Below, piece after piece: positions 2,980 to 21,191 of a stretch of 64,000 nucleotides of DNA. The stretch lies in NCBI GenBank assembly GCA_024614665.1, contig GCA_024614665.1_4861.1. The stretch is one strand, 5' to 3'. The stretch is from a phage. Within the stretch, counting starts at the first letter, position 1. Every line of letters starts with the position of its first letter. The notes under the pieces are model-generated. The model had not been told where the DNA came from and did no database searches. It saw only the letters and a program-made list of their open reading frames with translations. The translations under genes were made by a program, and so were the position numbers.

Positions 2980-4833
2980 TTACAGTTTGAAGTTGCTCAG
3001 AGACACGCCCAGACCGAAATCGGAACCGCTTGCAGACAGGCCGTTGCCAGACAGCGTGAAGTCTTCCCCACCGTTGTTGAAGAACAGAGAGGTCGCCATC
3101 GTGTTGTAGGCATTTACACCAGTCATAGACCAGGTGCAGTTGTTACGGACGAAGTCCAGCAGGCATTTACCGAAGATCGGGTTGATAGCCATATCCAGAG
3201 ATTCACCGGTAGCTTGCGGTGCTTTGGATGCGAACAGAGAAGCGGCCAGTTTCAGCATGTAGATACGCTGCTGACGCTCGTTCAGTTCACGGTGGCTGTA
3301 GGACTGTGCGTTCAGGTAGCTATAGACGTCGTTCGCGTTATCACCCAGTTTGGTAACAACGGAAATCAGGTCCATATCCTGGAAGCTGCGTTTCTGTGCA
3401 GTACCGGTGTAAACACCGGAAACAGTCGGTACGGCTGCTTTCACGATGTGGCTGCAATGGATGGTACCATTGAAGGCATCGCCCAGCTGTGCTTTCAGTG
3501 CAGAAGCAAATACTGCAGTGAAGCTGGTCGCTGCAACAACTTCGCCGTTCTGATCACGCGGGGACATGGAATTCAGAATAGCGAGCAGCTGTTTCAGAGA
3601 GTTGTCGTAACCGACCGCAATTTCAGACAGCATAGTAGACAGACCACCCAGGCCGTTACCGGCACGATGGCTAACTACCAGTGCTGCTTCACGCGGTGCG
3701 AACATATCCAGGCAACCTTCGATAGCTTCACGGCTACCGTCGATTTTGGATACATCAGGACGAGCGTCAGCACCCCAGGACAGGTATTCTGCCACACGGG
3801 AGAACTTGCGATCTTGTTTGTTCAGGCGTTTCACAAACAGGTCACGCCAGCCACCGATTGCCGCGATTTCTGCAAATGCAGCCAGCAGCAGCAGTTGACG
3901 TTCATACGGTGCCATTGCACCTTCAGTTTGAGAATCGACCAGACTTACTACGATTTCAGCCTGCAGCTGTTTCAGGTCGTAGACGCCGTTAACGACAGGT
4001 TTCTGACCGGTGAAACGCATATTGACGAAACCGGTACCGGATACACGCGGATACACCTGTACCTGATTGGTGTCCAGCAGAGTCGGAGTGGCATCGGTTA
4101 CGTTGCTTGGGCTGTGCTCAACGGTGATTGCGAAATCAGCACGCTGTGCGTGGCCGTTAGCATCCACAACCGCGCCATCTTCCAGCGGCATTACTGAGGC
4201 CTGATAACGGTCATGCTTACGCAGGTTCAGTGTACCCAGGTAGCCTGCGATACGACCGAAGATACCCATCATCATCTGACCCATCAGGGTACGTGCCCAC
4301 TCAGCATCCAGAACTTTACCCAGGTCTGGTACGGAGTTGATGATCATGAAGTTCGCATTGGTCAGACCATGCGCTTCCATGATGTTTTTCTGTACTACTG
4401 CCAGCACGTCTTTGTTGAACAGTTCAGTGATGGTGTAGTAGTCTTCCTGGCCGTTGTTGGTAGTTTCTTTCAGACGCAGAGACTGACCGCGTTCAAAGAA
4501 GATGATACCGTACAGCCAGTGGCCCTGCCATTGGCCTGCGACGTACGCCGCGGAACCCATTTCGTTACCCACGCCGACGATGGTGCCCCAGCGGAATGCG
4601 TTGAGGTATTCGTTGCTTTTCTTCAGCTCATCCAGGAGGTTGGTGAAGTGCATTGCATAAGTGCTGATGTTGCGGATGCCAAATGCGTTATCGAATTGGC
4701 TGACAGTAGAAGTACCCGGCACAGCAGTTTGCACTTTTACAGTCTCGTTGCCCAGACCGCCCAGTGGTGCGGTGTCTTGAGTCTGAGTGTTGTTCTGCTG
4801 AGCGTTGTTGTTAGAGTCAACGATTTTTACCAT
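2980..4833 (-). CDS. 617-aa protein with strong codon bias; candidate major structural or phage-nucleus shell protein (function unassigned)
   Basis: Long ORF with markedly host-optimal codon choice; sits directly upstream of the RNAP beta-prime gene; the long antisense ORFs across it are typical of highly biased genes. Confidence 0.6.
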   Translation of the reverse strand: MVKIVDSNNNAQQNNTQTQDTAPLGGLGNETVKVQTAVPGTSTVSQFDNAFGIRNISTYAMHFTNLLDELKKSNEYLNAFRWGTIVGVGNEMGSAAYVAGQWQGHWLYGIIFFERGQSLRLKETTNNGQEDYYTITELFNKDVLAVVQKNIMEAHGLTNANFMIINSVPDLGKVLDAEWARTLMGQMMMGIFGRIAGYLGTLNLRKHDRYQASVMPLEDGAVVDANGHAQRADFAITVEHSPSNVTDATPTLLDTNQVQVYPRVSGTGFVNMRFTGQKPVVNGVYDLKQLQAEIVVSLVDSQTEGAMAPYERQLLLLAAFAEIAAIGGWRDLFVKRLNKQDRKFSRVAEYLSWGADARPDVSKIDGSREAIEGCLDMFAPREAALVVSHRAGNGLGGLSTMLSEIAVGYDNSLKQLLAILNSMSPRDQNGEVVAATSFTAVFASALKAQLGDAFNGTIHCSHIVKAAVPTVSGVYTGTAQKRSFQDMDLISVVTKLGDNANDVYSYLNAQSYSHRELNERQQRIYMLKLAASLFASKAPQATGESLDMAINPIFGKCLLDFVRNNCTWSMTGVNAYNTMATSLFFNNGGEDFTLSGNGLSASGSDFGLGVSLSNFKL

Positions 4834-15157: not shown

Positions 15158-16105
15158 CTAATCAAACTGAAAATCGTACACGCTAAGCCATTGCTCACGT
15201 GGAAACAAATTATAAACTTCCTCAGGGATGTGGAGTACCAACCATCTAGCTCCGTTACCGCCAACGTACCAGGAAGCGTACGGATATATAGAATCCTTCG
15301 GTGGTGCTAACGGAGAAGGTAATTGCTGAGCCCCATAAACGATGCTACCGACCATCTCGCCGTCCGGTAGGACTGCCGCAACCATCCAATTCGCGGGATA
15401 ATAGGTTCCAGCATCGGGAGTCGCTAAATAACGCAAGTATAAGTTATCTGGCTCAAACCGCTTGCGTAGAGTTAAGAATAAACACAACTCATACGGTTCG
15501 ATGTTCAATCTGGTGTTCGGGAGACTGTGCTCTTTATACCAGTTTGCATAACCTGCCTGCAGTGCTCTGATTGCCAGGATTGGTTTGTCTATATCCACAG
15601 GTAGCTGGAGTGGTGTAACGTTCAAATCTGCGGCGGTTGGAAACATTACCGGTTCAGGATTGATGAGCTGGTTATACGCTTCCCGTAAACGATTCATCTT
15701 GATGCGTAATGCACCGTTCGTTAACACCAGCCTACGTCCATGGTTTTCATCTGCCGCACGTTCCGTAAAAAGTGCATCGCCGAAGTGGCGAACAAACTCA
15801 ATGCTTAGGAACTTGGTGTGGTACGTAGGTGATGTGTACTCAATGAACTCATTCTGTCTGAATCCAAAATGGTGGAGCAATTCGCCGTTGGTCCATTTGA
15901 ACACAAATCGGAATTCGAAGTTCTTGTACTGTAGCGCATCTTTTACAGCACGTATCGCTTCCCAAGCGTCGAAGTTCGTTCTGTATAACGAACCAAAAGG
16001 GAAGAATCTGCGAGGTAAGAAAGGTCGAATGCGGGTTGCTTCTGCGAGGCTGAAGCCATCCTGGTTTAATCCTTCGATAGCGCTAGGATTACTTGGTCTG
16101 TACAT
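15158..16105 (-). CDS. hypothetical protein (315 aa)
   Basis: ORF track. Confidence 0.55.
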   Translation of the reverse strand: MYRPSNPSAIEGLNQDGFSLAEATRIRPFLPRRFFPFGSLYRTNFDAWEAIRAVKDALQYKNFEFRFVFKWTNGELLHHFGFRQNEFIEYTSPTYHTKFLSIEFVRHFGDALFTERAADENHGRRLVLTNGALRIKMNRLREAYNQLINPEPVMFPTAADLNVTPLQLPVDIDKPILAIRALQAGYANWYKEHSLPNTRLNIEPYELCLFLTLRKRFEPDNLYLRYLATPDAGTYYPANWMVAAVLPDGEMVGSIVYGAQQLPSPLAPPKDSIYPYASWYVGGNGARWLVLHIPEEVYNLFPREQWLSVYDFQFD

Positions 16106-16195
16106 GATGCATACCTTTTATAGTCGAGTTGGGAGAATTCAGATGAGGATTTCTCATCTCACTTAGGTAATATCTATCTGTGGATATTTGGAATG

Positions 16196-16239
16196 CAAAA
16201 AAAAATAAAAGAGTTGTCCTCACTCCGAAGAGTGAGGAC
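16196..16239 (-). terminator. rho-independent terminator
   Basis: Minus strand hairpin GTCCTCACTC-TTCG-GAGTGAGGAC then long T-run; downstream of stop at 16330. Confidence 0.6.
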
Positions 16240-16329
16240 TTCCCTGGTGTTGGCATGTAAATCTACAAGGTCTTACAAGGTCAGACGAGGGCTAATCGTC
16301 AGGAACATAGCTACTGGGCGTTAGCTAAT

Positions 16330-17151
16330 TCAGCGAAGGGCGTCGGTAGTCTTACCGTGAGAGTTAACCACGTAGACTTCGTCGCCTTTATAAAACAGTT
16401 CGTACAACGCACCGGTACTGATCTGGTTATCAGGATCGTATCCAGATTCTTCTTCGATGCACATTGCGCCAATCAGTTCATCGACTGACCGGTCGCCAGG
16501 GCGAGCGCCTTTTAAAACAGTGACAACGCACTCACCATTAACCCATTGTGAGTGTTCCTGGACATCAGTGAACTCGATAGATGGACCAGGCTCTAATTTG
16601 GCTTGTTGCAGTTCTTCCTGAGTGTAGACAATAATCGCCATGTCGCTATCAGGAGACGGCTTGTACCAACCTAATTTTTCTAAGGGCGTACCGAAACCAA
16701 CGAGTTCGCCGCAGATACTATCCATGGCTTCCGGTTCACATAAATTTGTCGCCAGTACCAAGATAGCGTTGCCCTTATTATCTAGCACGTAGCTAATAAA
16801 CTCGCGTGCGTTGCAGTTAAACACCTCGACCGTTTCCAAATCGGGGATAATAAGGTTGGGGAAAAGCTGCCTCAGGTATACGTGAGCATAAAGCTGACTT
16901 GTAGACAGGCGCTGCTGCCAGCTACAATAATCAGACAAATGCATGGTGTTCGGATCAGGCACATCAGGGGCAACGCGTTTTAACCCCGGATTAAGGGCTA
17001 ACTTTTCATCACCGACAACGATGTCGAAGCGCTCGTTCTCGAGCATTTTTAATGCCTCGCGGAATACACGAGACTTACGGTCACCGATACGAACCTTTTC
17101 ATGTTCGGTAATGATACGGTCACCATCAATCACACGTTTAACTGTAAACAT
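16330..17151 (-). CDS. hypothetical protein (273 aa; start moved to internal ATG)
   Basis: ORF track ORF 16330..17523 has a 124-codon Pro/Gly/Arg-rich N-terminal extension with non-protein-like composition that abuts the tRNA-like elements; ATG at 17151..17149 (MFTVKRVIDG) has AAGGA RBS. Confidence 0.5.
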   Translation of the reverse strand: MFTVKRVIDGDRIITEHEKVRIGDRKSRVFREALKMLENERFDIVVGDEKLALNPGLKRVAPDVPDPNTMHLSDYCSWQQRLSTSQLYAHVYLRQLFPNLIIPDLETVEVFNCNAREFISYVLDNKGNAILVLATNLCEPEAMDSICGELVGFGTPLEKLGWYKPSPDSDMAIIVYTQEELQQAKLEPGPSIEFTDVQEHSQWVNGECVVTVLKGARPGDRSVDELIGAMCIEEESGYDPDNQISTGALYELFYKGDEVYVVNSHGKTTDALR

Positions 17152-17526
17152 GTTGCTTTCCTTCTTACTACTATTGCTGCTTCTATTGGTAGTCCACGAC
17201 ATATCCCTCGTGGGTGGGTTCGGTGTGTAACCGAATAAGTTTTTCTGTTCCCAGGGCAACGCACCAGGCTTAATTGATTTAGTTGGCAAACCAGGAACAG
17301 AAAAGGGTGAACAGACCAGGGCGCGAGGTGGCTCTGTAAGGATGCGTAAGAAAAACCCAAACGGCCCTGGTCTGTAATTTGGCCCGAAGTCACCGTGTCG
17401 GAGGACAGCCCATGCAGGTAGGCGGCAATGGACACGGTGACCGCGGAAGTGGTTCGTGTTACCCTTGACCCGTGTGTGGATACGCGTCTTATTTCGAATG
17501 CCTTCGGGATAAGGATAACACAAATG

Positions 17527-17606
17527 GGGCGAGCAAACGGACGGATTCGAACCGTCGAAATATCCGATTATGAGTCGGGTGTTAATTCCTCTAACTTCGC
17601 TGCTCT
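17527..17606 (-). pseudogene. tRNA-like element (degenerate): T-arm GACGG-TTCGAAT-CCGTC and anticodon-arm-like CCGA-CUCAUAA-UCGG (CAU), but no pairable acceptor stem
   Basis: Hand folding of minus strand; anticodon loop identical to elongator tRNA-Met loops; acceptor stem cannot be formed and the variable region is 6 nt. Confidence 0.35.
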
Positions 17607-17675
17607 TGCTTTGACCGGTCTCGAACCGGCGACCTTCCTCAAAGAGGTTGCTCTACCTACCTGAGCTACAAAGCC
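17607..17675 (-). pseudogene. tRNA-like element (degenerate): canonical acceptor, D-arm and T-arm but anticodon arm shortened by about 4 nt
   Basis: Minus strand GGCTTTG-TA-GCTCAGGTAGGTAGAGC...GCCGG-TTCGAGA-CCGGT-CAAAGCA; only 13 nt where a 17-nt anticodon arm is expected; G1-A72 mismatch. Confidence 0.35.
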
Positions 17676-18450
17676 ATTGTAAGGTGCCGGTGCATCCCGG
17701 CGTGTGTTAGTGCAGTCAGCTCCCTCGGGCCTATCTGCGGCAACACGTTGCCCGGCGCACCGACATATACCACAGTAACCTCGTAAAGTCACTCTGGTAT
17801 TGTTCGTTGCATATTACTAAGTTATCACGTAAACGATTTCACCACTTCCAATAATTAACCTAAATTCATTTCTGAATGCAGGTGATGGACTTCTTCTTCT
17901 GAGCCTGGCCATAAGGTCAGGTCTTAGCGTCTCCAAGCACCACCCGCTATCACGTACATTCGTGGCGTACCGGCCGTATGAGGTACCGCGCCTACGGTGA
18001 CACACAGTCACCCTAACACTGGGAACTCAATCCCATTTGATTATCAGATTGTGGATTTACAGGCGTAGCGTAGCGGCTTAATGGGCCGGTGCTTGCCTGT
18101 CCCCTAGGGACGGTTGTCGTGGAGACGCCAGTCTGTAAGTGGGGCCCTTACGGGAAAACCCATCGCCTGTAAACCAAACATGACTGAATACCCAGAACCG
18201 GACGTTTGAAATCAACATCCTGATGTACTGGAGTATTTCATGCATAAACGTGTCTCGTATCGAATGAGGTTATGACCGGTCAGATACCCAGCATCCTGTA
18301 CAAGCGACCTGGTGCTTTGTGTACCTGGCTGCTACGGATTTATCGGTTTACCGTAGGTCTGAGCTGCTACCGGCTCATGCGGGACATCAACCCGCACAAT
18401 CTGAGTAAGTATCATGGCTCGAATAGGGTTAGTGGGCCGAAGCCCACTGT

Positions 18451-18693
18451 TTAGCCAGCATTGAACGATTCATGAACGACGGTCCCAGCAGGATAGTGCG
18501 TAGTGCCGATAAGAGTAACGGTCAGGGTAAGCCCTTCATCCCAGCGCTCTTTCGGTAACCAGCGGCAGTCCATCCAATGACCACAGTCGGGAGGAATTGC
18601 ACACGCGGCTTGCTCCGTAGGAGCCGCCACGATTATGGAATCAAATTCATCGTACCCGATATCGTCAGTTCGTTCTAGCAAGTACAAATTCAT
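18451..18693 (-). CDS. hypothetical protein (80 aa)
   Basis: ORF track; AGGAG RBS 6 nt upstream of ATG. Confidence 0.45.
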   Translation of the reverse strand: MNLYLLERTDDIGYDEFDSIIVAAPTEQAACAIPPDCGHWMDCRWLPKERWDEGLTLTVTLIGTTHYPAGTVVHESFNAG

Positions 18694-18757
18694 GTTGTTC
18701 TCCTACAGTTGACAAATCTGTGTCTTCTGTGTTGAACCTGAATTCGTTGGCTAAATG

Positions 18758-18833
18758 TGGCGGGGGCACGAGGTTTCGAACCTCGAACCTTCGGTTTTGG
18801 AGACCGGTGCGCTACCAATTGCGCCATACCCCC
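18758..18833 (-). tRNA. tRNA-Trp (anticodon CCA), 76 nt, CCA encoded
   Basis: Hand-folded cloverleaf on minus strand: acceptor GGGGGTA/TGCCCCC, D-arm GCGC-AATTGGTA-GCGC, anticodon arm CCGGT-CUCCAAA-ACCGA (as in E. coli tRNA-Trp except a C27-A43 mismatch), T-arm CGAGG-TTCGAAA-CCTCG, discriminator G, CCA. Confidence 0.8.
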
Positions 18834-18926
18834 AGAATTCTTTAAACGTGTTTATACGGATGCGCTACCCCGTTATCGCAGGCGATTGATGGGGTCAAGC
18901 TTGCGTGCTTCTGACTCCCGCATGAT

Positions 18927-19418
18927 TCACCTCCGTAGTTCGTAAGTGCTAATCTCACCACCGGTGTAGATATCGCATTCGGACGCAATCTCAACAGCAC
19001 GAACCGCATTCGCGCCCATCTTCATCGCACCCAACGCGTACTCGTAACCGCTTCCGGTTGCCAGAGGTGGTGTGGCTTCACTCCACCACAACGACACGTC
19101 GTCTTCACGCTTCCCACCGACTATCGCTTTCCCTGAGGCCAGAAGCATCAGGAAAGTAAAATCCATCTTCGCAGGTAACTGCGAGCTTTGTGTTAACCCC
19201 TTGTAGCCGGGTCTCAAGCGGATAGTTTCCAGCAGGGCCAATTGTCCTGTGATGTCGCCGCTTACCCCGAACACCACAATTCGTTCACCGGTAATCCACC
19301 ACTCCTCGTCAGGAGGACAGACGAATAACTTCTGGGTATTCAGGTTGCAGATATTCGACCCACGGGTTAACTGGCCGTCAGCAGCTAAGACTTTTCCATC
19401 GAACGCTATCGTGGTCAT
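18927..19418 (-). CDS. HslV-like Ntn-hydrolase peptidase (proteasome beta-type, 163 aa)
   Basis: N-terminal MTTIAFDGKVLAADGQ matches HslV [20 protein letters not shown] with Thr directly after Met; C-terminal LATGSGYEYALGAMK...ASECDIYTGGEISTYEL matches HslV IAIGSGGPYAQAAARA...AGDICIYTNHFHTIEEL; no HslU-like ATPase in window. Confidence 0.6.
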   Translation of the reverse strand: MTTIAFDGKVLAADGQLTRGSNICNLNTQKLFVCPPDEEWWITGERIVVFGVSGDITGQLALLETIRLRPGYKGLTQSSQLPAKMDFTFLMLLASGKAIVGGKREDDVSLWWSEATPPLATGSGYEYALGAMKMGANAVRAVEIASECDIYTGGEISTYELRR

Positions 19419-19949
19419 GATTTAATTCTCCGTTTGGTTTATCATACCTCACGCAGAATCTGTAAATTTTAATCAGCCAGGTACCGTCGTTTCTCAACGG
19501 GAGTACCCACCCCTCTCGTCTGTTCCGAGCCGCCAAGATTTGGACCAACCTCCTCGTCGGAGTTATCCCCCAAGTCTGCGGTTCTACACGCAGACCCCTT
19601 TTCGACGCAACGCCGAATTCGAATCAGTTTTGGCCCGACGCCAGAGCGGAATCAGCGATAACTATCGGAGGTAAGTTCAACGACGTCTCTCCGCTGCCCA
19701 GTCCTCTGGCGCTGCCACGGTCAACTCGGATTTTGTCATGGGTGCGCAGTCGACTTTCTCGACACTCTCGCAAACCGAACTACGCCCGACGTAGCACCGT
19801 CGGCAGGTCGGTTATTTACCGAGTACCTGAATGGGTGGTGATTGTCGGAATCCCCGCCGACGCTCACCGGTTCTGTTCCACGGCGAAAGTTTTCCAGAAC
19901 ATAATAAATCACGCAGTGTTAGATTGCGCTTTGTCGAAGACACCACGGT

Positions 19950-19990
19950 AGGTATTTTCGAAAAAGCGTCCTGGGTAACAATCCCAGGAC
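19950..19990 (-). terminator. candidate rho-independent terminator inside ORF-free region
   Basis: Minus strand 8-bp stem GTCCTGGG/CCCAGGAC with 7-nt loop followed by GCUUUUUCG; no protein gene upstream of it. Confidence 0.35.
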
Positions 19991-20349
19991 TTGGAGCCCT
20001 AGCGTGCAGGGTTTAAAAGTGATTGGACCATTGGCGCGGTCAATCGCTATTCGCATATAACAACAAACTCACGTAATCAAAAAATTACCGGCTCGAGGCG
20101 TAGGCGTCCAGGAGCCGGTGAGTCACACAGCAGTGAGTCCCTCTGCGGGGATTTTCGTGGAGCTTGTCGTTGGAATAAAAATCCGTCCCCGGACGGGTTG
20201 GTGGTGTGGGTCGACTTGTCAGAGTCTGCCGTCCAGGGAGGCGGCCACCGAAGCTATGGGTTTTGGACATCGAGTGGTGGTCTGAACACACGATAGGGAA
20301 ACCACGTAAAAAATACACAGGGTACCCAAACCAGGACGTCTGTCCGATC

Positions 20350-20545
20350 ACGATCTCTTAATAAGGATCACGCGCGCGCCCGCACGCGTTTTAAGATCTT
20401 AATATATTAATATATTTATTTATATAAATAATTATAATAATTAAATATAATACCTAAAGGTATTATTATATTTAATATTATTATATATTTTAAAAGATCC
20501 TGGAGGATACGGGTGTGCGCACGCGCACGCGTATAAGGAAAGGGT
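20350..20545. promoter_or_regulatory. AT-rich quasi-palindromic element flanked by alternating purine-pyrimidine GC tracts (candidate origin/unwinding element or promoter hub)
   Basis: About 100 bp of nearly pure A/T (20396..20495) with an inverted repeat around TTAAATATAATACC/GGTATTATTATATTTAA; flanked by CACGCGCGCGCCCGCACGCG (left) and GTGTGCGCACGCGCACGCG (right). Confidence 0.35.
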
Positions 20546-21121
20546 CTTCGACCCGATCCACAGGATCGATCTAAAAAACAATCTAAGTGATTGTTTTAAA
20601 AAGAAATTTTGAGAATTAGATTAAATTATCCCCTAAGGGGGATTTTAGAGTGAGTTAAACAACCCAAAGAACTCGTAAGTAACCGACAGTGTGTGTCGGT
20701 TACAGAACGATCCAGTTTTCACCCAGACATGGCACGAAGTGCTACCCAACGTGTGATCGTCGTCGCCGGCCGCGACCGTCACCTCGGAGCCGAAACGGGA
20801 ATGGCACTCTCGCGCTCTCAACGGCCCGCTGGCGCGATTTTCCGGTAGGGGGAACCCAAGTGTACTGGGTCAGGTATAAATCTCGTTCTAGCGCTTTCTA
20901 GAGCGTTTTTAATAACTGGTTAAAAAACATACAATCCTGAATCCACATTCCCTGAATTTCCTCGCCCCGACAAAAATAAATTCTCTGTCTCGATACATAA
21001 CCCCCTCTAAAACGCACGTAACCGACCCTAGAAAACGATAAACTGCCAAAAACGAGCTACCCTACATCCAGACCACTTAATCGTTTTCTGACGTCTCCTA
21101 GACCCCCTTTAACCGGCCGGT

Positions 21122-21184
21122 TAAAAAATAATCAAAAAAAAATAAAAAAAATAAGATTGGCGTACTCCCCGAAGAGAGTACGCC
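21122..21184 (-). terminator. rho-independent terminator
   Basis: Minus strand hairpin GGCGTACTCTC-TTCG-GGGAGTACGCC (11-bp stem, UUCG loop) then very long T-run. Confidence 0.7.
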
Positions 21185-21191
21185 TAGTGAC

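Follow-up and report, generated by a model that had tools for sequence, protein, structure and literature searches.

What is encoded by a stretch of about 1.6 kilobases (kb) in the tRNA operon of a jumbo phage, when little of it reads as protein? The question is posed by positions 17152-18757 of the 64,000-nucleotide (nt) stretch of phage DNA analysed here (the window), in which an original prediction, made from the DNA letters and their open reading frames (ORFs), had placed a candidate large structured RNA beside tRNA genes. The stretch and its flanks are 98-99% identical to Seoulvirus jumbo phages of Salmonella (SaP7, SPN3US and SEGD1) with genomes of ~240 kb, and the genes annotated around the stretch all lie on the minus strand. 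Read along that strand, the order is the HslV gene, tRNA-Trp, a gene for a protein of 80 amino acids (aa), an RNA of ~520 nt, the remnants of a tRNA array, a set of trailer hairpins and a gene for a 273-aa protein; the stretch is largely the decayed tRNA operon of an SPN3US-like jumbo phage. The ~520-nt element, at 17874-18402 on the minus strand, is with high probability a genuine gene for a structured RNA, apparently of a new family. The predicted RNA is thus upheld by strong covariation, although it takes up only about one third of the stretch and the prediction had missed its strand.

A conserved structured RNA on the minus strand

The RNA is conserved in four genera of jumbo phages, and its helices show compensatory change across genera. 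Every relative has, just upstream (in the sense of transcription) of the first tRNA of its array, a gap of ~580-800 nt that is unannotated or inconsistently annotated, and alignment of these gaps on the minus strand brings out long invariant blocks of 11-22 nt, among them GGUGCUUGGAG, GGCUCA...GAAGAAGUCCAUC, ACAAUCUGA, UGGGAUURAGUUCC and ACAAAGNAC, between which lie variable stems with compensatory change. Over the 1.6 kb, matches to Erwinia phages at the DNA level are confined to the tRNA parts, the RNA element and the 80-aa gene, and the HslV protein of the window is 35-43% identical to the HslV proteins of Stratton, ChrisDB and Huxley. HslV itself was too widespread to be usable as a marker for more distant jumbo phages. 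Homologs of the RNA were collected by exact-pattern scans of IMG/VR and of the JGI/ENA metagenomes, together with GenBank phages, and the ~24 distinct sequences obtained all lie on contigs of large phages, of roughly 240-250 kb for these scans and of 240-290 kb over the whole distribution. The 3' motif of the RNA occurs in 0 of 185,579 bacterial genomes and the RNA has no blastn match in E. coli genomes (E up to 1), so that an origin in the host is not supported. Full-text literature searches, which took in a recent review of jumbo phages and a survey covering 10,006 candidate structured RNAs of viruses, gave no description of the element, and in ~60 deposited genomes the region is annotated inconsistently, as 'hypothetical protein', as 'tRNA-OTHER' or not at all; a covariance model is now usable for it.

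The evidence that carries the structure is comparative. RNAalifold, run on 14 sequences, returns 84 pairs, 39 of which are compensatory in that both sides have changed with pairing kept. In a covariation test, 85 pairs taken from the 5' domain and the 3' domain were scored over 16 sequences, with shuffled alignments and with partners slid by 1-3 columns as controls. Standard pairs fill 93.5% of the cells, compared with 80.4% after shuffling (none of 500 shuffles reached the observed value) and 31-45% for slid partners; 42 pairs show double changes where slid partners give 7-15, and the covariation score is 0.408 as against 0.05-0.08. Alignment with related phages had been put forward as a check on the proposal, and it is this check that supports it. 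The strongest helices are P1 (18375-18398), the hairpin at 18331-18357, the nested arm at 18276-18328 and the terminal hairpin at 17878-17947. The second of these has a conserved 13-nt loop, compensatory change in six of its seven pairs, and up to five pair types.

It might be supposed that selection acts here on the DNA, and that the element marks an origin of replication, a site for packaging or a cluster of promoters by the conventional genome start. The locus does lie near position 1 in most deposited genomes of the group, and a second ORF-poor, partly conserved stretch is found at 19419-21190. The helices, however, tolerate G-U (115 cells) and not A-C (20 cells), as expected for a single strand of RNA but not for double-stranded DNA; this same excess assigns the RNA to the minus strand. 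Compensatory changes, moreover, keep pairing and not sequence, and in a second group of phages (type B, below) the core of the RNA lies elsewhere, at ~177 kb of 288 kb, and is still beside tRNA-Tyr. A DNA-level element is in our estimation highly improbable.

Stable local hairpins had also been offered as evidence, and the three that were quoted are all present where they had been placed. They differ in meaning. GCGGG-ACATCAA-CCCGC, at 18379-18395, is the covarying helix P1 of the RNA. GTGGGC-CGAA-GCCCAC, at 18432-18447, had been held not to be a terminator; it has no U-tract and is not called by a terminator scan. On the minus strand it is the UUCG-loop hairpin GUGGGC-UUCG-GCCCAC, which stands right 3' of the stop codon of the 80-aa gene and is kept in SPAsTU and pEa29. 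GAGC-TGCTACCG-GCTC, at 18361-18376, does not persist as a hairpin in the alignment, and its bases belong to other helices. As to richness in hairpins as such, single-sequence folding gives z-scores of -1.8 for the minus strand and -3.6 for the plus strand, which are unexceptional, so that the hairpin content of this one sequence does not exceed chance; these scores fail to tell the strands apart and are uninformative. Two further pairings proposed by eye, UGGAGAC/GUCUCCA and a tetraloop-receptor reading of GCUAAG/UAUGG, were dropped as they are not kept across clades.

The core domain and its occurrence alone

The best defined part of the RNA is a core domain of ~150 nt (18254-18402, minus strand), which scores 130.7 bits with a covariance model, R1, built for it. 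It consists of hairpin P1, a closing helix and two more hairpin arms, which surround a junction with the conserved bases ACAAAGCAC; a tail, CUCAUUCGAUACGAG, forms its 3' part. P1 itself (UGUGCGGG-UUGAUGU-CCCGCAUGA, 18375-18398, minus strand) has five pairs with compensatory changes. Its 7-nt loop (18384-18390) enters into a candidate pseudoknot in which four bases of the loop (18385-18388, read as GAUG along the minus strand) pair with the tail segment CAUU (18263-18266, minus strand), which lies ~150 nt downstream and 17-20 nt upstream of the AUG of a small ORF described below. Two of the four pairs switch between A-U and G-C in step: pair 26:184 is GC in 7 sequences and AU in 8, and pair 24:186 is AU in 12 and GC in 4. 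Over 21 sequences that include type B the corresponding counts are AU 13 to GC 7 and AU 14 to GC 5, and the pseudoknot then has 13 double-change cells where slid partners have 0-4.

Considered alone (alignment A7), the core has 89.9% of its cells paired, compared with 72% after shuffling and 31-45% for slid partners; 28 of its 37 pairs are changed on both sides, and its covariation score of 0.565 compares with ~0.1 for slid partners. Model R1 was derived from 17 sequences and has 159 positions and 37 pairs. It finds one copy per locus, at 89-141 bits across 21 non-redundant members, scores that are to be read in the knowledge that the model was built from the member sequences themselves, with the exception of L043, L045, L036 and L040.

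A short-query search revealed a match of 60 nt, shared by Salmonella phage SA002 (288 kb) and the Erwinia phages pEa_SNUABM_48 and pEa_SNUABM_37 (294 kb), and R1 scores 128 bits in SA002 and pEa48. In these phages, as in the IMG/VR contigs L043 and L045, which took no part in model building and score 91.3 and 89.5 bits (E about 1e-20), the complete 150-nt core stands 18-20 nt past tRNA-Tyr, an arrangement referred to as type B. In SA002 and the two Erwinia phages the P1 helix shows a compensatory change from GGG/CCC to UGG/CCA, and neither the small ORF nor the 3' domain is found behind the core. The core is an autonomous module, occurring alone after tRNA-Tyr in a second lineage of jumbo phages. 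The features that mark the new family are a P1 with a YUGRURW loop, a helix 4 with a NNANNCNNUAANN loop, the ACAAAGNAC junction, the pseudoknot between P1 loop and tail, and a place within a phage tRNA operon, and all of them are found in the window.

A small open reading frame inside the RNA

The middle of the RNA holds a small ORF of 55 aa, MHEILQYIRMLISNVRFWVFSHVWFTGDGFSRKGPTYRLASPRQPSLGDRQAPAH (18078-18245, minus strand). Its frame is the sole one, counting both strands, that is open in 18 of 18 aligned homologs, where it has 55-69 codons, an AUG start and the same invariant UAA stop, which falls inside the loop of a conserved hairpin. The second half of the ORF overlaps helices of the RNA. 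The product in the window matches phrog_26199 (E 8e-5), three members with E from 1.4e-8 to 7.6e-5, and a profile search of 5.8 billion proteins found just seven relatives, all in the same phage group and none outside it. In the N-terminal half, changes are distributed over the three codon positions as 128:81:186, and within one clade as 32:10:65, with 47 synonymous and 32 non-synonymous changes; the C-terminal half (63:36:56) has no third-position excess. The synonymous fraction is 0.29 in the frame of the ORF, compared with 0.20 and 0.07 for the two remaining frames. These patterns of substitution suggest a frame that is maintained and probably translated, into a peptide that would be weakly constrained.

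The original prediction of a stretch devoid of credible protein genes holds in one respect, as there is no long ORF in 17152-18757 other than the 80-aa gene at 18451-18693, and fails in another, as that gene (phrog_5444) and the conserved 55-aa ORF at 18078-18245, which had been passed over as short, both fall within it. A set of small-protein ORFs had been named in advance as a finding that could explain the region without an RNA gene. The small ORF goes part of the way: beyond it, ~190 nt upstream and ~200 nt downstream are conserved, structured and non-coding.

Could the conserved blocks nevertheless be coding in some unrecognised way, whether as several small genes, through frameshifting or as a split gene? 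ORFs are annotated in places (ChrisDB gp9, Machina gp9 and a 65-aa coding sequence in SPAsTU), and the small ORF matches a PHROG family. The one frame open in all homologs, however, covers only ~170-200 of 520-600 nt; in the 5' and 3' domains every frame is interrupted by stops in some homolog and the indels are not multiples of three, and even the small ORF lacks a third-position excess in its C-terminal half. Coding of this kind is barely credible as an explanation of the whole.

A different use of the same ORF would make the RNA an ordinary mRNA for a small protein, in which the 5' domain serves in cis as an operator or riboswitch-like aptamer and the 3' domain as a stabilising 3' untranslated region (UTR), with nothing acting in trans. 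Several features suit such an arrangement. In the SPN3US/Erwinia lineage the tail segment targeted by the pseudoknot sits 10-25 nt before the AUG, next to Shine-Dalgarno-like purines of the small ORF, and coincides in part with AGGUGA-like sequences in Machina, L022 and pEa11, the small ORF is conserved, and the size and architecture of the core, a junction plus a pseudoknot, are those of aptamer domains. Type B, however, keeps the full core and pseudoknot without the small ORF, its next gene being ~190 nt off with a strong ribosome-binding site (RBS) of its own, and the pairing is therefore part of the RNA fold and not just a trap for an RBS. Moreover, the RNA is better conserved than the peptide that it would regulate, the 3' domain contains extended unpaired blocks that do not vary and for which a mere stabiliser would have no need, and all riboswitch and leader models score below threshold. 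An exclusively cis-acting role is the chief rival, and is on balance unlikely.

The 3' domain and its exchangeable modules

Downstream of the small ORF, the 3' domain (17874-18077, minus strand) comprises helices 14 and 15 together with invariant blocks; in these two helices 97.5-97.7% of cells are paired and nine pairs are changed on both sides. The segment CGCCUGUAAA (18056-18065) pairs back with UUUACAGGCG (18164-18173) within the small ORF, an invariant hairpin UGGGA-UUGAGU-UCCCA is present at 18020-18035, and the long terminal hairpin (17878-17947) has the invariant internal loops UUGGAGNCG / GAAGAAGAAGUC. In a Wellington-like contig (L036) the basal stem is the same, and the hairpin that it carries is unrelated to the terminal hairpin of the others.

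A second site of exchange lies at 17963-18015 (minus strand), where the distribution across clades identifies a mosaic peripheral module of two adjacent, swappable hairpins. The second of these, GCGCGGUACCUCAUACGGCCGGUACGC (33 nt, 17963-17995), is near-identical in phages of different clades, the sisters of which carry others. It was considered as a dispersed repeat, an idea rejected on finding a single copy per genome, the window included. The module (17965-18015) is also the best sub-threshold Rfam match of the element, reaching 22 bits with RF03132, the predicted leader for ribosomal protein L17, against a gathering score of 34.9, with E ranging from 0.17 to 6.3 depending on the amount of sequence searched. 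The likeness consists in the same two-hairpin layout and in a 10-nt loop that, with its closing pairs, agrees at 18 of 19 positions. Unlike the leader, the module is not upstream of rplQ, has no rplQ in its context, and occurs in only some members of the RNA family; even for RF03132 the L17 ligand is a prediction (Eckert and Weinberg 2020, PMC7247131). The resemblance is a lead that could be due to chance. Rfam scans of the alternative modules at the mosaic site yield no lead.

Possible expression, processing and function

Wherever it occurs, the RNA lies within a tRNA operon and close to tRNA-Tyr. Its 3' end is 0-20 nt from the first tRNA in Stratton and in the loci L019, L022 and L017, and in L014 it begins 75 nt past tRNA-Cys. 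A simple scan finds no sigma-70-like promoter and no minus-strand terminator inside the stretch. One plausible course of events is that the RNA would be transcribed within the precursor of the tRNA operon and excised from it by the tRNA-processing enzymes of the host, with RNase P cutting at the 5' end of the next tRNA and type B being freed by 3'-trailer processing past tRNA-Tyr, and that it would then persist as a stable fold with its terminal helices protecting it. Conservation on a par with that of the adjacent tRNA genes, together with long invariant unpaired segments, suggests a conserved partner and not mere stabilisation, and the core would act by itself as a folded RNA, most likely as a platform that binds a conserved factor, from host or phage, belonging to the tRNA or translation apparatus. 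In the SPN3US/Erwinia lineage the core would have become fused to a translated small ORF; translation of this ORF must open the central helices, and the composite form could therefore be translation-sensitive or bifunctional.

The overall picture of a modular structured RNA in a tRNA operon, processed and either bifunctional or translation-sensitive, is the one that we favour, with moderate confidence; that the RNA acts in trans is a more tentative proposal, to which we lean rather less than to its contrary. Several considerations weigh against this picture. The ends of the transcript, its stability and its processing are all inferred, and there may be an internal promoter, served by the phage's own RNA polymerases, between the RNA and the tRNAs. 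Folded singly, the sequence has an energy that does not stand out (z = -1.8), and the central region of the RNA folds differently among clades. The coding signal of the small ORF is clear in one clade only, that of pEa11. The family of the 80-aa protein is present also in smaller phages that lack the RNA, so that the linkage of the two may be mere synteny. Lastly, the sole hint of a partner, the hairpin that resembles the L17 leader, is sub-threshold and possibly a chance match.

A more far-reaching version would have the pseudoknotted core represent a new class of trans-acting phage RNA that the host's enzymes for tRNA processing mature from tRNA operons and that engages the translation or tRNA apparatus of the host, with the fusion to the small ORF as a translation sensor. 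We hold this to be quite improbable. Two routes are possible: a ribosomal protein (e.g. L17) could be captured via the leader-like hairpin, or the RNA could form an RNA-only complex, as with GOLLD and ROOL. If this version were true, ribosome traffic would switch the fold, and the RNA would report on or tune translation during infection by a nucleus-forming phage. The RNA has a significance of its own, in that it is conserved like the tRNAs that surround it and survives in SPN3US-like phages despite the decay of their arrays. Genetically tractable jumbo phages of Salmonella, E. coli and Erwinia carry it, the model phage SPN3US among them, and its role is directly testable.

Remains of the tRNA array, spacer and trailer

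Outside the RNA, the rest of the stretch is made up of the decayed tRNA array, conserved trailer hairpins and the 80-aa gene. A tRNA array occupies the same interval in SPAsTU, pEa_SNUABM_29, Caitlin, ChrisDB, pEa_SNUABM_4, Machina, Stratton, pEa_SNUABM_11, Asesino, pSal-SNUABM-04 and pEa_SNUABM_9, usually with Tyr as its first gene and Asn as its last, and with up to 10 or more genes. In the window tRNA-Asn has been lost precisely, at ~17526, and is kept by the close relative MET_P1. At a deletion breakpoint at ~17680 close relatives are longer by 258 nt, and SPAsTU has five tRNA genes there (Gln, Ile, Asp, Glu and Tyr). The sole canonical tRNA remaining in the operon of the window is tRNA-Trp(CCA) (18758-18833, minus strand; called by ARAGORN, 65.6 bits with Rfam), and ARAGORN calls no further tRNA in the stretch. 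The description of the stretch as bracketed by tRNA-like elements and tRNA-Trp is accurate for tRNA-Trp; both tRNA-like elements, however, are inside it.

The first of these, at 17606-17675 (minus strand), reaches 38.1 bits with the Rfam tRNA model (gathering score 29) and is not called by ARAGORN. Its acceptor, D and T arms are intact, and a 3-nt loop replaces the anticodon loop; the acceptor and T stems covary with those of orthologs that bear insertions of 30-45 nt in the anticodon arm. Orthologs are found at the loci L005, L010, L011 and L038, the one in SPAsTU has an insertion of ~44 nt, and those of Machina, Stratton and Asesino, 97-121 nt long, are annotated as 'tRNA-Ile(aat)'. With stems that covary between genera and an anticodon arm that varies freely, the element looks like a conserved non-decoding tRNA-like RNA more than a dead gene. 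The second, at 17532-17603 (minus strand), is a tRNA(CAU)-like gene of the Met/Ile2 type with an imperfect acceptor stem, at 30.6 bits against the same gathering score of 29; its orthologs reach 44-48 bits in Caitlin and Stratton, and the copy in the window, too, is not called by ARAGORN.

The loss of tRNA-Asn and of the Tyr-Glu-Asp-Ile-Gln block at the clean breakpoints ~17526 and ~17680, and the persistence of two low-scoring tRNA-like genes, might invite the view that the whole stretch is unselected debris of a decaying array, with leftover tRNA arms for hairpins. This view holds only for ~17532-17680. The RNA at 17874-18402 is also present in phages with full arrays, has no match to the tRNA model (E up to 10) and has undergone compensatory evolution across genera; for that interval the debris interpretation is refuted by covariation and by the presence of the RNA beside intact arrays, and as an account of the stretch it is very improbable.

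Between the RNA and the remains of the array is a spacer (17676-17873, minus strand) with an AU-rich motif, a hairpin and the deletion breakpoint at ~17680. The motif, UUAGGUUAAU at 17854-17863, occurs once in the window; a general phage promoter motif UUARGUUAAU was rejected because of this single occurrence in 64 kb. The hairpin, at 17767-17800 and followed by UAUAUGUCGG, covaries between Seoulvirus and Machinavirus. At the other side of the array remains, 17152-17531 (minus strand; alignment A3) forms the trailer of the operon and the 5' UTR of the 273-aa gene. These 380 nt are non-coding, as their indels are not multiples of three, and contain long conserved hairpins with compensatory pairs at ~17452-17525 and ~17389-17444, with further hairpins before the RBS.

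The tRNAs with the greatest persistence beside the RNA, as in the type-B loci L041 and L042 and in the minimal arrays of L004 and L006, are Tyr(GUA) and Asn(GUU). The tRNAs for Tyr, Asn, Asp and His are the queuosine-family tRNAs with GUN anticodons, and are also the targets of anticodon nucleases of the colicin-E5 type. The persistence of Tyr and Asn, queuosine-family tRNAs, near the RNA may be a coincidence.

The 80-aa gene and other neighbours

The 80-aa gene (18451-18693, minus strand) belongs to phrog_5444 (E 1e-36). The protein family has an N-terminal motif, MNLYLxER...YDEYDS, and an invariant C-terminal SFNAG; a confident AlphaFold2 model has a predicted local distance difference test score (pLDDT) of 88.8 and no fold match in the PDB. 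Type-B phages encode a 99-aa homolog ~190 nt past the core RNA. Homologs of phrog_5444 are found also in phage contigs of ~30-90 kb (L046, L049 and L052), beside genes for DNA polymerase A and a helicase. These smaller phages do not have the RNA, and the 80-aa protein was accordingly rejected as an obligate partner of it.

The HslV-family peptidase gene (18927-19418, minus strand) and the 273-aa gene (16330-17151, minus strand, with its start at 17151 and a good RBS) lie on either side of the stretch. Upstream of the HslV gene is the second ORF-poor stretch, of ~1.8 kb, at 19419-21190. Two parts of it, 19426-19621 and ~20419-20543, have ~80% identity in Erwinia Machina-, Erskine- and Wellington-virus genomes, mostly without annotation there; the stretch has no Rfam match, and it could hold more RNA elements under conservation, or regulatory ones.

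When close SPN3US-like genomes are compared, the genes for the 315-aa and 273-aa proteins (within 15158-17151) differ by 8-9.5% per site, and the adjacent non-coding region of the tRNA operon (17152-18450) differs by just 1-3%, which suggests mosaic exchange of the protein genes. Nucleotide diversity among these genomes was uninformative as a test of constraint, the flanking genes being the more divergent, probably through mosaicism. Two close relatives, Proteus phage 7 (L002, 5581-6156) and phage 1252 (L003, 6185-6760), have an extra 576-nt coding sequence by HslV, and phage 1252 has in addition a 540-nt coding sequence (3433-3972) that replaces the tRNA-like pair; none of these is in the window, and such extra genes in close relatives make the locus an insertion/deletion hotspot. 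Several SPFM records (LR535901-LR535921) align to the region only in 20-29 short pieces of 96-98% identity, a fragmentation that suggests assembly or indel noise in the deposits and not biology.

Relation to known RNA families

Does the RNA belong to a family that is already described? Rfam release 15 was searched at gathering and at relaxed thresholds (E up to 10) with the window, the sub-regions 16900-20600 and 17860-18410, and the relatives. In the window region and 11 relatives only tRNAs reach threshold, and no other family attains its gathering score in the stretch. The models for GOLLD, ROOL, HEARO, OLE and raiA have no match in the window (gathering thresholds), in either sub-region (E up to 10) or in the 11 related loci, and those for RNase P RNA and group I and II introns have none in the stretch; the comparison with Rfam models recommended at the outset (GOLLD, ROOL, HEARO, tmRNA, RNase P and introns) thus gave no match there. 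The same scan does detect a group I intron at 1228-1537 of the window (minus strand; 65.5 bits, E 2e-14, above the Rfam gathering score), so that the method works on this genome. Neither ARAGORN nor Rfam finds a transfer-messenger RNA (tmRNA), and the small ORF begins with AUG. No Rfam riboswitch or T-box model reaches threshold, and the type-B core has no ORF directly behind it.

Comparison with individual systems is nonetheless instructive. The trailer of the E. coli tyrT operon yields the RtT RNA, which is cut from the tRNA-Tyr transcript, is built of repeated units and encodes the small basic protein Tpr. An extra RNA with a tiny ORF is common to both, and the type-B order of tRNA-Tyr followed by the RNA is positionally the same; the window RNA, in contrast, is upstream of the tRNA-Tyr position and not downstream of it, has no match to the Rfam RtT model and has no blastn match (E up to 1) in E. 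coli genomes. In the dual-function RNAs SgrS/SgrT, RNAIII/hld and SR1/SR1P a structured RNA has a short internal frame, and tmRNA combines a tag ORF that has no start codon with tRNA-like ends. The window RNA likewise joins structure to a short internal frame and, like tmRNA, has its stop codon in a helix, but its two ends lack the pairing of a tRNA-like acceptor and T arm.

The nearest parallels in setting come from phages themselves, whose tRNA clusters have long been known for extra stable RNAs (T4 species 1/2, GOLLD and ROOL). Species 1 and 2 of T4 (RNA C and D) are stable RNAs of ~120-140 nt within the T4 tRNA cluster, which have no ORF and are matured by tRNA enzymes. Compared by description only, they are alike in being non-tRNA RNAs embedded in a phage tRNA operon, whereas the window RNA is larger (~520 nt) and carries an ORF. 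GOLLD and ROOL are large ornate RNAs that often occur beside tRNA genes in phages and prophages (PMC12286853, PMC5737381). The window RNA resembles them in its length of several hundred nt, its many helices, its conserved junctions and loops, its residence in phages and its tRNA neighbours; it differs from them in being carried by jumbo phages that infect Enterobacteria, in the conserved ORF inside it and in a 150-nt core that also occurs alone. To the stable RNAs of phage tRNA clusters it adds what appears to be a new, well-defined family.

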